A stretch of 64,000 bases of DNA, from positions 672,001-736,000 of the forward strand of contig CBDDFZ010000001.1 in the NCBI GenBank assembly GCA_965227515.1. Direction: 5' to 3'. The first letter of the stretch is position 1. Every line of letters starts with the position of its first letter. Source of the DNA: Alphaproteobacteria bacterium. Its GTDB lineage: Bacteria > Pseudomonadota > Alphaproteobacteria > CALKHQ01. Of this stretch, positions 21,324-25,501 are shown piece by piece. The position numbers and the translations under genes are program-made. The notes beneath the pieces are model-generated. The model did no database searches and was not told the origin of the DNA. It saw nothing but the letters and a program-made list of their open reading frames with translations.

Positions 21324-22358
21324 TCAGCCCACGGCGGGGATGATGTCCTCCGCCAGCATGGCGCGCAAGTCGCCGACGTAACCGTCGGAGCGTGCCGGGC
21401 GGTTGGGGTCGGAGGTGATGGCGACGGTCAGTGCCGCGTCAGGCACCACGTAGAGGAGCTGGCCGCCATAGCCCCTTGCGTAGCGCACTTCCGCGCCGCC
21501 CAGCTCGGTCGCGAACCAGCCATAGCCGTACCGGTCGCCGGAATAGGGCGAGCGGGTGCGCGGCTGCCAGCTCGCCTCGATCCAGCCCTCGCTGACCACC
21601 CGCTGGCCGTTCCACACCCCGCCCATGCGCGCCATCTCGCCGAAGCGCCACAGCGCGGTCGGCGCCAGCGCCATGTTGTTGCCGCCCATGTAGAAGCCCT
21701 GCGGGTCGCGGGTCCATGGCGGCACTTGGATCTCCAGCGGCGTGCCCAGCCAGTCGCGGGCCAGCGCCAGCAGGCTCTGACCGGTCACCTGCGACAGCAC
21801 CGCGCCGAGCACGTGGTAGCTGCCGGTGGAATAGAGCATGCGCCCGCCCGGCACGTCGATGAACGGGCGGGTCAGCACATAGCGCACCCAGTTGCCGCTG
21901 CCGACCCAGGCGCCGTAGTTGGGGCCGGAGGTGCGGTCGAGCCCGGCGCGCATGGTCAGCAAATGGTCGACGGTGATGTCCTGGACCAATGGATCGGCAT
22001 CGGCCGGCACCAGGTCGCCCAGCAACGGCGCTACCGGCGTGTCGGGCCCGGCGATCAGGCCACGGTCGATGGCGATGCCGGTCAGGATGGCGACGATGGT
22101 CTTCGACGCCGACTTGACGTTGGCCGGGTAGTCGAGCGACGGGCCGCGAAACGCCTCCGCCGCAACCACCTCGCCGCGATGGCCGACGATCATGCTGTGG
22201 AGCTGGTCGAGGCCGCGGGCGCGTTCGACCGCGCGGGCCAGCACGTCGGTGTCCAGGGCCGGCAGCGCCGCGCGCGCGAGCGGAGCGGCAGCGAGCGTCC
22301 CCGCCGCCGCGGCGCAACCGGCAAGCACGTCCCGCCGGCGAAGTTTCGTTTTTGCCAT
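21324..22358 (-). CDS. Tat-exported serine hydrolase (class C beta-lactamase-like)
   Basis: LRRRDVL twin-arginine signal, SASK (SxxK), LLTMRAG, YST. Confidence 0.85.
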   Translation of the reverse strand: MAKTKLRRRDVLAGCAAAAGTLAAAPLARAALPALDTDVLARAVERARGLDQLHSMIVGHRGEVVAAEAFRGPSLDYPANVKSASKTIVAILTGIAIDRGLIAGPDTPVAPLLGDLVPADADPLVQDITVDHLLTMRAGLDRTSGPNYGAWVGSGNWVRYVLTRPFIDVPGGRMLYSTGSYHVLGAVLSQVTGQSLLALARDWLGTPLEIQVPPWTRDPQGFYMGGNNMALAPTALWRFGEMARMGGVWNGQRVVSEGWIEASWQPRTRSPYSGDRYGYGWFATELGGAEVRYARGYGGQLLYVVPDAALTVAITSDPNRPARSDGYVGDLRAMLAEDIIPAVG

Positions 22359-22511
22359 GACGGCAGAATTGCGCCAGCGCGACCGTGAGATCAACTCATC
22401 GACGCTTCACACCCGCGTCATCTCGCCGACTCGATGAAGACGCCCTTGCCACATGGGTTATGCCATTCACACATCTCGATTGCGGTTGCTCCATTTCTCC
22501 AAAAGACGCTC

Positions 22512-22688
22512 GACTCCCTCGGCCTTGTGCCGAGGGTCCATAGCAACGCCGGACGCGATTGGCGGGCGGGAAGGCATCAACATCTGATGCAGCAACCACT
22601 CCAAGGACAATATCCAGGATCGGTGGCATATCGCCAAACCATTGGAGCGAATGCGAAAATAGGCCCTCGGCACAAGGCCGAGGGCGTC
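22512..22688. repeat. Inverted REP-like hairpin dimer, copy C (177 bp)
   Basis: gactccctcggccttgtgccgagggtccat ... ataggccctcggcacaaggccgagggcgtc. Confidence 0.85.
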
Positions 22689-22697
22689 AACTTTCTA

Positions 22698-22775
22698 GGC
22701 GCGTAGCCTGGGTGAAGCGTAGCGAAACCCGGGTTCCACTTCGTTCCACCCAGGCTACGGGGTTCCATCCAGGCT
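22698..22775 (+). repeat. GTAG-type composite REP, copy 1, interrupted by the IS (last 7 bp at 24205-24211)
   Basis: ggcgcGTAGcctgggtgaagcgtagcgaaacccggg...ggttccatccaggCT; colinear with 24808-24892. Confidence 0.9.
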
Positions 22776-22799
22776 TCTGTAACGGACCGTTGTTGGTCA

Positions 22800-23040
22800 A
22801 TCCCTTTTTCGTCGTCCCGGCGCCTGGGTCATGCTTCTGTACGGGGTCGGCGCAGGGCCGCCGCCAAGATGGATATGCGAGGATCGGTCGGTCCAATCTA
22901 CGGAAGCGTGCTCTCGTGCGAGGCGACATCCTGGATGGCGGCCTGACCTGATCCATCGTCCCGGCGCGGGACGGCGCTTGACGGGCCGGTGTCAGCGCCC
23001 GCCGAAGCTCGTGTGTTGGTTCTCCCTATGCGGCGGTCGT
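22800..23040 (-). ncRNA. Putative bridge/seek RNA in the downstream non-coding end of the IS (boundaries approximate)
   Basis: Target-matching segments at 22930-22938 and 22898-22905 and donor-matching segments at 22866-22872 and 22834-22841, each pair separated by a hairpin. Confidence 0.8.
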
Positions 23041-23048
23041 CTTTGCCA

Positions 23049-24092
23049 TTAGGCCGCGGCCATCGCCGGGCGCACCGGTCCGGCATGGTTGAACACGGTG
23101 CCGTCAACCCACATCCGGTGCATGATCACGGCCAGCCGGCGCGCCAGGGCCACCTTCGCCTTCCTCATGCCGGCTCGCCTGGCCAGCTTCATCGCCCAGC
23201 TCTTCAACCACCCGCCCTTGATCGGCCGGGTCAGGATCACGTGCGCCGCCTCGTAAAGCGCTGCACGCACGTCCGCATCGCCCACCTTCGAGATCCGCCC
23301 CGTCATCTCGCTCTCGCCCGACTGGCGCTTGGTCGGCGTCAGACCGAAGTGCGCCCCCACCAGGCGCGACGACGCAAACCGCCCAGGGTCGTCCACCCCC
23401 GACAAGTAGGTCAGACCGACAATCTCCCCCACCCCCGGCACCGTCATCAGCAGACGCACCCGAGCGTCCGCCTGCGATGCCGCTCGGACCTGCCGGTCCA
23501 GCGCCGTGAACGAATGCAGCAACCCATCTCGTGCCGCCAGCAACGCACCCGCCACCGCCTCCAAGACAGGATGCCCAGACACCAATGTCGCAATACGCGC
23601 GGCAAAGCGGCGCCGCGTCGTGGGCCCTACCTTCAGCCCGAAGTTCCGCAGCTGACCGCGAAGGTGCATCTCAAGGTCGTGCAGTTTGCAGCGAAGCTGA
23701 TCGCGCCCCTTCAAGAGCGCGCGCATCTCCTGAGCCGCCAAAGACTTGCAATGAACAGGCCGAAACCAACCCACACGCATCATCTGAGCAATCCCACGCG
23801 CGTCCGAGCGATCCGACTTCACCGGCATCGTCGAAAGCGCTCGCGCAACGTGACGCGTCTCCAGCAACTCAACCGAAAGACCACCCTGCGCGCACTCCCG
23901 CACAAGCCATTGCGACAATGGACCCGCCTCAAGACCAATCCGCTCAACCGAAAAACCCAGACCCTCAAACCAAGCCAATAAACCCGAAGGCGTGCTCGCA
24001 ATACGAGCCTCGCAGACAATCCCGCCCGCGCCGTCAACAACGCACACCGATGACCATTCCAAAGAAACGTCAATCCCGGCATAGTAGTTCAT
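23049..24092 (-). CDS. IS110-family DEDD recombinase/transposase
   Basis: YAGIDVS, GLEAG, KSDRSDA (DEDD); LMTVPGVG, FGLTP..RQSGE catalytic Ser, GRISKVG. Confidence 0.96.
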   Translation of the reverse strand: MNYYAGIDVSLEWSSVCVVDGAGGIVCEARIASTPSGLLAWFEGLGFSVERIGLEAGPLSQWLVRECAQGGLSVELLETRHVARALSTMPVKSDRSDARGIAQMMRVGWFRPVHCKSLAAQEMRALLKGRDQLRCKLHDLEMHLRGQLRNFGLKVGPTTRRRFAARIATLVSGHPVLEAVAGALLAARDGLLHSFTALDRQVRAASQADARVRLLMTVPGVGEIVGLTYLSGVDDPGRFASSRLVGAHFGLTPTKRQSGESEMTGRISKVGDADVRAALYEAAHVILTRPIKGGWLKSWAMKLARRAGMRKAKVALARRLAVIMHRMWVDGTVFNHAGPVRPAMAAA

Positions 24093-24210
24093 GGTCGTCT
24101 CTCCTCGATGTCTTGGAGCGGCAAACCCGACTCCGTGTATGACACCGACATCTTGAGGGACGACCACTCAACTCAGCCAAAAAAACAGGACCGTTAGCCC
24201 ATCTACGGGA

Positions 24211-24699
24211 TTAGGCCGCTTTCTTGTTCAGAGTCACCTCGGCCAGCGAGGTCAGCTCGCGGTCGACATCGTATTCGTTGTCCAGGTTCTGCTGCAGCAG
24301 GGTCTTGGCGGTGTCGTTACCCAGCAAGTCGGCCCATGAGACCAGCGTGCCGTAGCGCGCGATGCCATAGTGCTTGGCGGCCTGCAGCGCGGCCACGATG
24401 GCGGCGTCCATCGCCTGGTCGTCGTCGCAATCGGCGATGATTTCGTCGGTCTCGTCGATGATGCCGTTGATCGCCGGACAGGTCTCGCCGCGCGGCTTCA
24501 GGTCGATGGTCTCGAACACGCTTTCCAGGCGCTCGACCTTCTTGTCGACCTCGTCGCCGTGGGTGTTCAGGAAGTTGGTCAGCGTGTCGAAATTGGCCTT
24601 GGCCTGCATCTTCGGCATCGTCGTGCGCATGCGCTTCTCGGCGTAGTAGATGTCGCGCAGGAAGTGCTTGAACAGGTCGTCGAGCGAAGTCATTGCCAT
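24211..24699 (-). CDS. DUF892/YciF ferritin-like stress protein
   Basis: LRDIYYAEK, CPAINGII.E, HYGIARYGTL..WA; GGAGG RBS. Confidence 0.9.
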   Translation of the reverse strand: MAMTSLDDLFKHFLRDIYYAEKRMRTTMPKMQAKANFDTLTNFLNTHGDEVDKKVERLESVFETIDLKPRGETCPAINGIIDETDEIIADCDDDQAMDAAIVAALQAAKHYGIARYGTLVSWADLLGNDTAKTLLQQNLDNEYDVDRELTSLAEVTLNKKAA

Positions 24700-24773
24700 G
24701 TCGTCCTCCGGAGCGTTCCGGGAGCCGGCGCACCAGGACGCGACAACGCTCCCGTTGTTGGGGTCAATCCCAC

Positions 24774-24798
24774 AACGGAGGAAAGGCTCGAAGGTTCC
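24774..24798 (-). promoter_or_regulatory. EcfG/sigmaT (general stress response) promoter
   Basis: Minus strand GGAAC-cttcgagcctttcctc(16)-CGTT, matching the consensus, upstream of DUF892. Confidence 0.75.
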
Positions 24799-24807
24799 GG
24801 CTGTACC

Positions 24808-24892
24808 GGCGCGTAGCCCGGGTGAAGCGCAGCGAAACCCGGGTTCCATTTCGTTCCACGCAGGCTACCGGGTTCCACCCGGGCTACGGGAT
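24808..24892 (+). repeat. GTAG-type composite REP, copy 2 (intact, 85 bp)
   Basis: ggcgcGTAGcccgggtgaagcgcagcgaaacccggg...ggttccacccgggCTacgggat. Confidence 0.9.
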
Positions 24893-24907
24893 CGACAAGT
24901 CCCTGAT

Positions 24908-25501
24908 CTAGTGCTCCCGGGGCGCGTGCTTGTTCAGGATGCGCTGCAGGGTGCGGCGGTGCATGTTCAGGCGCCGCGCCGTTTCCGAGACGTTGCGGTC
25001 GCACTGCTCGAACACGCGCTGGATGTGCTCCCAGCGCACGCGGTCGGCCGACATCGGGTTTTCCGGCGGCGGCGGCAGCGAGCCCTCGTGCGCGGTGAGC
25101 GCGGCGGCCACCTGGTCGGCGTCGGCGGGCTTGGGCAGATAGTCGACCGCGCCGGCCTTGATCGCGCTGACCGCGGTGGCGATGTTGCCGTACCCGGTCA
25201 GCATGACGATGCGGCAGTCCGGGCGCGCGTCGCGCAGCACCGGCACGATGGACAGGCCATTGCCGTCCTCCAGCCGCATGTCGATGACCGCGAAGGCGGG
25301 TGGCTTGACTGCAATCGCCTCCATCGACTCCGCCACCGACGCCGTGCCGACCACGGTGAAGCCGCGCTTCTCCATCGCCCGGCTCAGGCGGTTGCGTAGC
25401 GGCGCATCGTCGTCGACGATCAACAGATGGCGGTCGTCGGCGGCGTTGGGACCCGCATTGGTTGTGTGGGGTGACGATCCGCCGGGTGGCGTTGTTGTCA
25501 T
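24908..25501 (-). CDS. regA: Redox response regulator RegA/PrrA/ActR
   Basis: Receiver domain plus PPENPMSADRVRWEHIQRVFEQCDRNVSETARRLNMHRRTLQRIL. Confidence 0.96.
   Translation of the reverse strand: MTTTPPGGSSPHTTNAGPNAADDRHLLIVDDDAPLRNRLSRAMEKRGFTVVGTASVAESMEAIAVKPPAFAVIDMRLEDGNGLSIVPVLRDARPDCRIVMLTGYGNIATAVSAIKAGAVDYLPKPADADQVAAALTAHEGSLPPPPENPMSADRVRWEHIQRVFEQCDRNVSETARRLNMHRRTLQRILNKHAPREH

Follow-up and report, generated by a model that had tools for sequence, protein, structure and literature searches.

An insertion sequence on the minus strand of the window (the whole stretch of 64,000 nucleotides that was analysed) is very probably an intact IS110-family element of the IS1111 type, encoding a DEDD/serine recombinase together with a two-loop bridge RNA (seekRNA) of approximately 125–145 nt in its 3' non-coding region. 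The anatomy of the element, its domain content, the guide matches, the covariation of guides with DNA and the covariation of the RNA stems were all observed directly. A bridge or seekRNA had been proposed here in a first-pass annotation, and this reading is supported by the IS110-family domains of the protein, by an RNA that lies on the 3' side of the gene, the arrangement of the IS1111 group, and by guides that covary with the DNA they address. The accompanying description of the element as intact holds for the open reading frame and the ends, given an open 347-aa frame and both junctions, and the recombinase may also be reprogrammable, an attribute drawn from its family.

Boundaries and copies of the element

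When the genome of origin was searched with window positions 22776-24204, 20 full-length copies with 89–100% identity were recovered, along with one internally deleted copy. The likeness among the copies ends exactly at both AG junctions (...gt/AG-ATGGGCTAACGG... on the left and ...GTTACAGA-AG/CCYGGRTG on the right in the 20 copies, with the slash marking the limit), and the element was therefore defined as these positions, amounting to 1429 bp if the AG core (CT on the plus strand) is included once. Its features are collected in Table 1. Insertion is site-specific with a shared core dinucleotide and without a longer target duplication, as is typical of the IS110 family: all 20 copies lie directly 5' of a CCYGGRTG arm and have the right end AGA/AG in common, and the transposase frame is open in every one of them (345–347 aa). 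The left flank of the window copy begins right behind the TAA stop codon (24213..24211) of a DUF892 gene. As the non-coding DNA is longer downstream of the transposase gene (273 nt, 23048..22776) than upstream (112 nt, 24204..24093), the layout is that of the IS1111 type (PMC11187229).

The putative subterminal inverted repeats were read from the sequence, being too short and imperfect (9 bp, one mismatch) to appear in a repeat search of the window; in the sister copies, comparison shows the repeat reaching approximately 17 bp with mismatches. The terminal extensions beyond the repeats, outside the core, measure 6 nt on the left and 4 nt on the right, the published values being 7 and 3. The variable base at the centre of the repeat (GGNCC) is T in the window copy and C in the other 19, in each case at both ends; the ends changed together, with an identical substitution on one strand instead of a mirror-image pair.

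The internally deleted copy (L021/L022, own genome, C1:998355-999179) keeps positions 1-719 and 1310-1429, and with them both ends and the donor-loop part, while the terminal part of the gene is missing, as is the LTG/RTG region; it could therefore be mobile only if RNA and protein are supplied in trans. The plus-strand word ATTAGGCCGC occurs twice as a perfect direct repeat of 10 nt, at 23048-23057 and 24210-24219, spanning the stop codons of the transposase and DUF892 genes, and may well be due to chance in G+C-rich DNA. The best match in a plasmid collection came from a plasmid of Acidiphilium multivorum; it is full-length at 67.6% identity and is annotated there only as 'IS110 family transposase'.

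Table 1. Features of the insertion sequence and its flanks (window coordinates)
Feature	Position	Strand	Basis
Whole insertion sequence	22776..24204	-	Limits where likeness among 20 genomic copies ends; flanks differ per locus
Left flank tcccgt, target of RTG	24205..24210	-	gt before AG in 20/20 copies, cgt in most
Core dinucleotide AG, left junction	24203..24204	-	AG at both junctions, 20/20 copies
Left subterminal inverted repeat TAACGGTCC	24188..24196	-	Read from sequence; pairs 8/9 with right copy
5' UTR hairpin	24093..24170	-	Fold -47.8 kcal/mol, z = -2.94
Transposase/recombinase gene, 347 aa + stop	23049..24092 (protein 24092..23052)	-	Pfam, NCBIfam, PDB matches
5' stem-loop GUCCCGCGCCGGGAC ahead of target-binding loop	22958..22972	-	Consensus helix 1 covers part
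Target-loop closing stem, 5' half	22940..22954	-	Helix 2: 13 pairs, 7 with compensatory changes
LTG CCAUCCAGG, pairs with right-flank strand cctggatgg	22930..22938	-	Match and covariation
Inner hairpin CUCG/CGAG between LTG and RTG	22913..22922	-	Relatives have a variable-length hairpin at the same place
RTG UUCCGU + core-binding AG	22898..22905	-	Match; relatives
AU behind RTG, putative target-loop handshake guide	22896..22897	-	Equals element's first two bases (AT) past core
Target-loop closing stem, 3' half	22881..22894	-	Consensus fold
LDG CCAUCUU, equals circle junction ...CCAT-CT-T	22866..22872	-	Match and covariation with left end
G+C hairpin between LDG and RDG	22845..22865	-	Helix 3: 5 pairs, 4 compensatory, 100% of cells paired
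RDG UACAGA + core-binding AG	22834..22841	-	Match and covariation with right end
CA behind RDG, putative donor-loop handshake guide	22832..22833	-	First base equals first flank base
TTGACC, -35-like hexamer	22795..22800	-	19 nt from element's end; TTGAC in 27/33 elements
Right subterminal inverted repeat GGTCCGTTA	22780..22788	-	Read from sequence and copies
Core dinucleotide AG, right junction (second copy)	22774..22775	-	AG at both junctions, 20/20 copies
Right flank, REP arm cctggatgg, target of LTG	22765..22773	-	Strand reading, copy comparison

The recombinase and its 5' UTR

The protein carries both domains of the family, the N-terminal RuvC-like DEDD domain (Pfam PF01548, DEDD_Tnp_IS110, E = 6e-13, residues 5-150) and the C-terminal transposase domain with the conserved serine (PF02371, Transposase_20, E = 1e-19), and it scores 239 bits against NCBIfam NF033542, 'IS110 family RNA-guided transposase', for which the cut-off is 140. 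Two solved structures were matched by the C-terminal domain, IS621 (PDB 8wt6, E = 7e-12) and ISCro4 (E = 2e-11). The serine motif QSGES is aligned to the catalytic SG of IS621, with GLTPTKRQSG standing against GLTPRRYESG in IS621, and the serine motif of the IS110 family is given as G--P----SG in the available part of PMC11187229. The alignment of the N-terminal domain to IS621 is weak; it sets D (YAGID), E (GLEAG) and D..D (KSDRSDA) opposite the acidic residues of IS621, whose numbering was taken from the accessible text of PMC11208158.

In the predicted fold of the 5' UTR, GGUCGUCCCUC... pairs with ...GAGGAGAGACGACC, and the GAGGAG ribosome-binding site and the AUG are buried. The regions upstream of the gene in relatives show the same complementary blocks. 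Judged by analogy, this putative hairpin recalls the translational control described for ISPpu9.

Four guide segments and their DNA partners

Four guide segments had been placed on the minus-strand RNA in the first-pass annotation, and each was recovered at its position (Table 1) along with its partner. LTG, CCATCCAGG as minus-strand DNA, is equal to the plus-strand flank at 22765-22773, as established by reading both strands, and RTG, TTCCGTAG, pairs with plus-strand CTACGGGA (24203-24210) over 8 positions with one U.G. On the donor side, LDG (CCATCTT) equals the rebuilt circle junction, namely ...CCAT-CT (24199-24204) followed by T (22776), and RDG, TACAGAAG, pairs 8/8 with plus-strand CTTCTGTA (22774-22781). 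The repeat search found two of these relations independently, that of RDG (22770-22781 against 22830-22841, 11/12) and that of RTG (22893-22903 against 24198-24208, 10/11). When the non-coding region was shuffled 5000 times, the observed match was reached 6 times for LTG, 80 for RTG, 16 for LDG and 8 for RDG.

The naming of the segments in the order LTG-RTG-LDG-RDG is valid only if one reads the DNA strand opposite that of the RNA. In transposase orientation, the core reads AG and the segment complementary to the top strand precedes the other, the order reported for the IS1111 seekRNAs by Siddiquee et al. (PMC11187229).

The motif AGAU, comprising the core-binding AG of RTG and the two bases behind it, is invariant across 24 aligned RNAs. 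By analogy with positions 81-82 of the IS621 RNA, as described in the accessible part of PMC11208158, the AU at the end of this motif may act as the handshake guide of the target loop. An Rfam scan of positions 21500-25500 with E up to 1 returned no matches, which shows no more than the lack of a curated family for this RNA.

Covariation of guides and DNA among relatives

From the genome collection, 80 loci with 38–68% aa identity were kept, mostly in soil alphaproteobacterial genomes, and 57 of them are near full-length matches. Right ends could be assigned in 44 of the 57; the other 13 (L024, L030, L036, L038, L051, L053, L054, L055, L058, L067, L071, L089 and L092) were left out of the flank tests because a right end or flank was absent or ambiguous, the copy was tandem, or the flank was too short. 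Near-identical elements were thinned by eye to 33 representatives for the LTG and handshake tests and 17, with a readable left end, for the donor tests. Two of the excluded elements have structures of their own: in L036, a complete right end leads straight into a further, partial non-coding copy and another right end, and in L067 the left end is tandemly duplicated. Both may be tandem or nested insertions.

Across these homologous insertion sequences, LTG, LDG, RDG and the handshake dinucleotide all fit their own DNA better than in permuted pairings. The LTG word sits at a homologous place, 160–200 nt from the 3' end, in many relatives, and scores at least 8/9 in 19 of 44. Two copies of a single genome, for example, carry AAUCCGCC and AACCCGCC next to the flanks ggcggatt and ggcgggtt, respectively, and further words complementary to their own flank at the homologous place are CAUGCGGG, GGAGCGCGC and GCAUGUCCG. 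Over the 33 representatives, the mean score of LTG was 7.30/9 against the element's own flank and 6.39 against the flanks of other elements, a difference reached in 0 of 20000 permutations, while the antisense control of this test had no effect (6.33 versus 6.41). The own target was best or tied best in only 14 of the 33 rows, and the best-match search sometimes lands at a non-homologous place (L002, L014, L018, L047 and L080). LTG does not fit the own flank in L029, L047, L049, L050, L052, L064 and L078/L082, exceptions that may be due to decay or to mobilisation in trans. Among relatives further removed (L040 and beyond), LTG continues into CU and covers the core; in the clade of the window, made up of its own copies and L023-L037, the bases past LTG are AU, CA, CC, AA or AG, leaving the core uncovered.

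RTG, placed immediately 5' of the invariant AGAU, agrees with the left flank along 8 nt in L037, 6 in L049, 5 in L046 and 4 in both L032 and L078, with no fit to the left flank in L026, L027, L029 and L039. In most of the 20 copies of the genome of origin, only (c)gt and AG are matched, and support for this segment is thin outside the window copy.

For the donor guides, RDG follows the right end of the element (ACAGA, AGAGA or AGCGA) with 0 of 20000 permutations reaching the observed fit, and LDG follows the left end with 37 of 20000 (17 elements); the guide changes along with the DNA, AGATGGTG being paired up with CACCAUC and AGCATG with CAUGC. In addition, the two bases past RDG equal the first two bases of the flank in 39 of 66 comparisons among the 33 elements (28.7 expected; 6 of 20000 permutations).

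Secondary structure of the RNA

The stems proposed in the first-pass annotation exist in the sequence, the halves of the target-loop closing stem being GGAUCaGGUCaGGCC (22954..22940) and GGaCCGACCGAUCC (22894..22881), but the structure drawn from them is not returned by single-sequence thermodynamic folding. Single-sequence folds were not significant (z = -1.2 and -1.0) and did not yield the two-loop structure, which amounts to -43.6 kcal/mol when imposed as a constraint versus -47.2 kcal/mol for the minimum free energy fold. Such folds being uninformative, comparative analysis was used, and the support for the structure comes from the relatives. The 24 aligned RNAs share a conserved stem-loop scaffold with 21 consensus pairs, 12 of which show compensatory changes; it consists of a 13-pair target-loop stem, a 5-pair hairpin between LDG and RDG, and part of the 5' hairpin, in which GGGACG is invariant among the 24 sequences. 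In this consensus, 91.9% of the cells are paired versus 81.9% in shuffles (0 of 500 reached the observed value), and the figure falls to 32–53% when the partners are slid by 1–3 columns.

These results bear on the alternative that only the first loop guides, in the manner of a short target-finding seekRNA, with the ends being read by the protein via the subterminal repeats and with LDG and RDG being DNA-level copies, for example extra binding sites. This explanation is improbable, albeit the strongest of those considered. The main species co-purified by Siddiquee et al. is 82–96 nt long and only target matches are described in the available part of their report (PMC11187229), and the fit of LDG was reached by a number of permutations in the test above; the low diversity of donor ends among the relatives also makes the donor tests less powerful. 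However, RDG tracks the right end with no permutation reaching it, LDG follows the changes of the left end, and the hairpin between the two is compensatory in 4 of its 5 pairs, which is a constraint at the RNA level. A longer RNA of 154 nt also co-purifies in the case of ISEc11, according to the same part of PMC11187229, and both loops were modelled for IS1111 elements by Durrant et al. in the accessible text of PMC11208160.

Two sublineages and their REP targets

The 20 copies in the genome of origin fall into two sublineages that are one guide base apart, A or G, the other three guides being invariant. Seven copies (L001-L007, the window copy included) have the A guide, LTG CCAUCCAGG, and 13 (L008-L020) have the G guide, LTG CCAUCCGGG. 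All seven A-guide copies are situated in CCTGG(A/G)TG arms, and the G-guide copies are found in CCCGG(A/G)TG arms in 11 cases out of 13 and in CCTGGGTG in the remaining 2. The guide base hence tracks the T or C of the occupied REP arm (Fisher p = 4.6e-4, 20 copies), and the perfectly matching variant CCCGGATG, which makes up 20% of the sites, holds 9 of the 13 G-guide copies (binomial p = 1.8e-4). At LTG positions 2-9, the pairs that are not Watson-Crick are all rU.dG or rG.dT wobbles, and all 20 copies pair throughout these positions if such wobbles are allowed; position 1 is mismatched in 6 of the 20.

The empty arms noted in the first-pass annotation are present, ccacccagg at 22746 and ccacccggg at 24875. 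The added claim that LTG fits the occupied arm exactly and not the empty ones is true within the window, but it is no rule, as CCTGGGTG arms, with which the A guide pairs through one U.G wobble, are occupied by 6 of the 7 A-guide copies. As these sister copies sit in arms of the 'ccacccagg' type, an exact match between guide and target is not required.

Genome-wide, there are 114 empty GTAG+CCYGGRTG sites versus approximately 6 expected, in a genome of 67% G+C, and CCYGGRTG comprises four REP variants: CCTGGATG, CCTGGGTG, CCCGGATG and CCCGGGTG. A REP cluster is located beside the element at window positions 22663-22760 and 24813-24887, with unoccupied GTAG+CCYGGRTG sites starting at 22703 (+), 22758 (-), 24813 (+) and 24887 (-).

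It is conceivable, at somewhat under even odds, that the guide exploits wobble pairing so that one RNA covers a degenerate REP family. The U at LTG position 4 would pair with either purine of CCYGGRTG; the G at position 7 in the G-guide sublineage (sublineage B) would pair with either pyrimidine, and the A at this position would limit the A guide to the CCT variants. With wobbles at positions 4 and 7, the B guide would therefore be able to address all four REP variants. If this proposal is true, the sublineages partition, and partly share, the 134 sites of the genome, and they could mobilise each other in trans, their donor guides and ends being identical; sharing or mobilisation in trans would account for the presence of two B copies in arms of the A type. 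The proposal would also mean that a natural single-base reprogramming has been caught within one genome.

Comparison of the copies also speaks to the notion of a decaying, immobile relic whose guides are kept only through the recency of the copies, which is very unlikely. One internally deleted copy is in keeping with it; against it, the frames of all 20 full-length copies are open, the codon differences are mostly synonymous (52 versus 20 and 70 versus 29), the RNA region is better conserved than the coding sequence (between the sublineages, identity is 98% in the final 200 nt of the non-coding region and 88–92% in the CDS), and the REP variant occupied accords with the guide base of the sublineage. 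The suggestion that the matches are due to chance or a by-product of the G+C-rich repeats around REPs, devoid of guide function, deserves next to no credence: REP-like words, such as the empty sites counted above, are indeed common in this G+C-rich genome and the single-sequence fold is not significant, but shuffles rarely reach the matches, relatives with quite different targets have a matching word at the same place of the RNA, and the antisense control was without signal.

Proposed mechanism and transcription

In the favoured reading of a two-loop bridge RNA, LTG CCAUCCAGG in the target-binding loop would pair with the REP arm to the right of the insertion point, and RTG (UUCCGU-AG) would pair with the opposite strand of the left flank and the core. 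In the donor-binding loop, LDG (CCAUCUU) and RDG (UACAGA-AG) would pair with the two termini of the element, which the excised circle brings together at the AG core. The RNA-bound recombinase would then exchange strands at the shared AG (CT) dinucleotide, with the circle landing directly 5' of the GCCYGGRTG arm of the REP. We infer from IS621, ISEc11 and ISPa11 that the RNA is probably made and bound by the recombinase, that a circle intermediate and a junction promoter are likely involved, and that a handshake step probably takes place in a similar manner.

With respect to transcription, 27 of 33 elements have TTGAC at a distance of 17–20 nt from their right end. This hexamer-like motif would face GAAGAT across the circle junction, where the two could drive both the gene and the RNA, and its placing agrees with a promoter that is completed only at the circle junction; a sigma-70 scan of the linear element found no promoter. 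The window copy is placed 6 nt behind the DUF892 stop codon and ahead of a terminator-like hairpin (22685..22663), and read-through is therefore another possible source of the transcript.

Comparison with known systems

The predicted RNA described here is judged to be a real bridge RNA or seekRNA of an IS1111-type element and opens no new mechanism. Given that the mechanism (bridge RNA, PMC11208160; seekRNA, PMC11187229; structures, PMC11208158, each as far as the available text goes), the downstream RNA and the targeting of REPs (IS621, ISPa11 and ISPpu9) have all been published, it constitutes a sound but ordinary addition to a known system.

The nearest description is that of ISPa11, ISEc11 and ISKpn4 of the IS1111 group by Siddiquee et al. 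2024 (PMC11187229). According to the accessible part of that paper, the RNA of IS1111 elements is found downstream of the gene, and the three elements have a downstream non-coding region as here, along with subterminal inverted repeats, to which the putative repeats of the present element would correspond; their seekRNAs likewise present the complement of the top strand first and a match to the top strand thereafter, the two overlapping where insertion takes place. REP targeting is a further point in common with ISPa11, whose seekRNA was co-purified with its transposase. In addition, 93% of IS1111 elements were predicted to have a bridge RNA in their right end (PMC11208160). The element in the window differs from the three in its host lineage and its REP word GCCYGGRTG, in a subterminal repeat of 9 bp with one mismatch compared with 11–13 bp in theirs (PMC11187229, same part), and in that its donor-side guides and handshake positions are backed by comparison.

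With IS621 of the IS110 group, as portrayed in the accessible text of PMC11208160 and PMC11208158, the element shares an RNA whose two loops hold LTG/RTG and LDG/RDG, a CT core in both target and donor, an LTG of approximately 9 nt, a short RTG, tolerance of rG.dT, and a DEDD and serine recombinase. The two bases past each right guide fit the other DNA in both (the handshake; PMC11208158), and the target of IS621 is also a REP, ATCAGGCCTAC. Unlike IS621, in which the RNA is upstream at the left end, the RNA is downstream in the present element and the guide geometry is inverted with respect to transcription, with the core being AG on the RNA strand; only the C-terminal domain aligns significantly, and the LTG of the window's clade leaves the core uncovered with AU where CU is expected, whereas the distant relatives have CU.

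ISPpu9 and ISPpu10 of Pseudomonas putida, again as presented in the available part of the source (PMC12288879), are similarly IS110-family elements with a fixed REP position and a structured 5' UTR, the latter limiting translation of the transposase in those elements. ISPpu9 has the small RNAs Asr9 and Ssr9 and a strong native promoter of its own, and it reportedly forms no junction promoter (PMC12288879).

Set against these systems, the added value of the present element resides in the single-base covariation of guide and target within one genome, in the wobble pattern, and in the support for a donor loop and a handshake in IS1111-type RNAs; the donor-loop and handshake covariation seen across approximately 40 relatives is not described in the available part of the seekRNA paper (PMC11187229). 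A natural bridge-RNA system from a G+C-rich alphaproteobacterial lineage, represented in a single genome by 20 intact copies with two variants of the guide, offers a ready natural experiment on the strictness of guide-target pairing, in particular on the tolerance of U.G and G.T.
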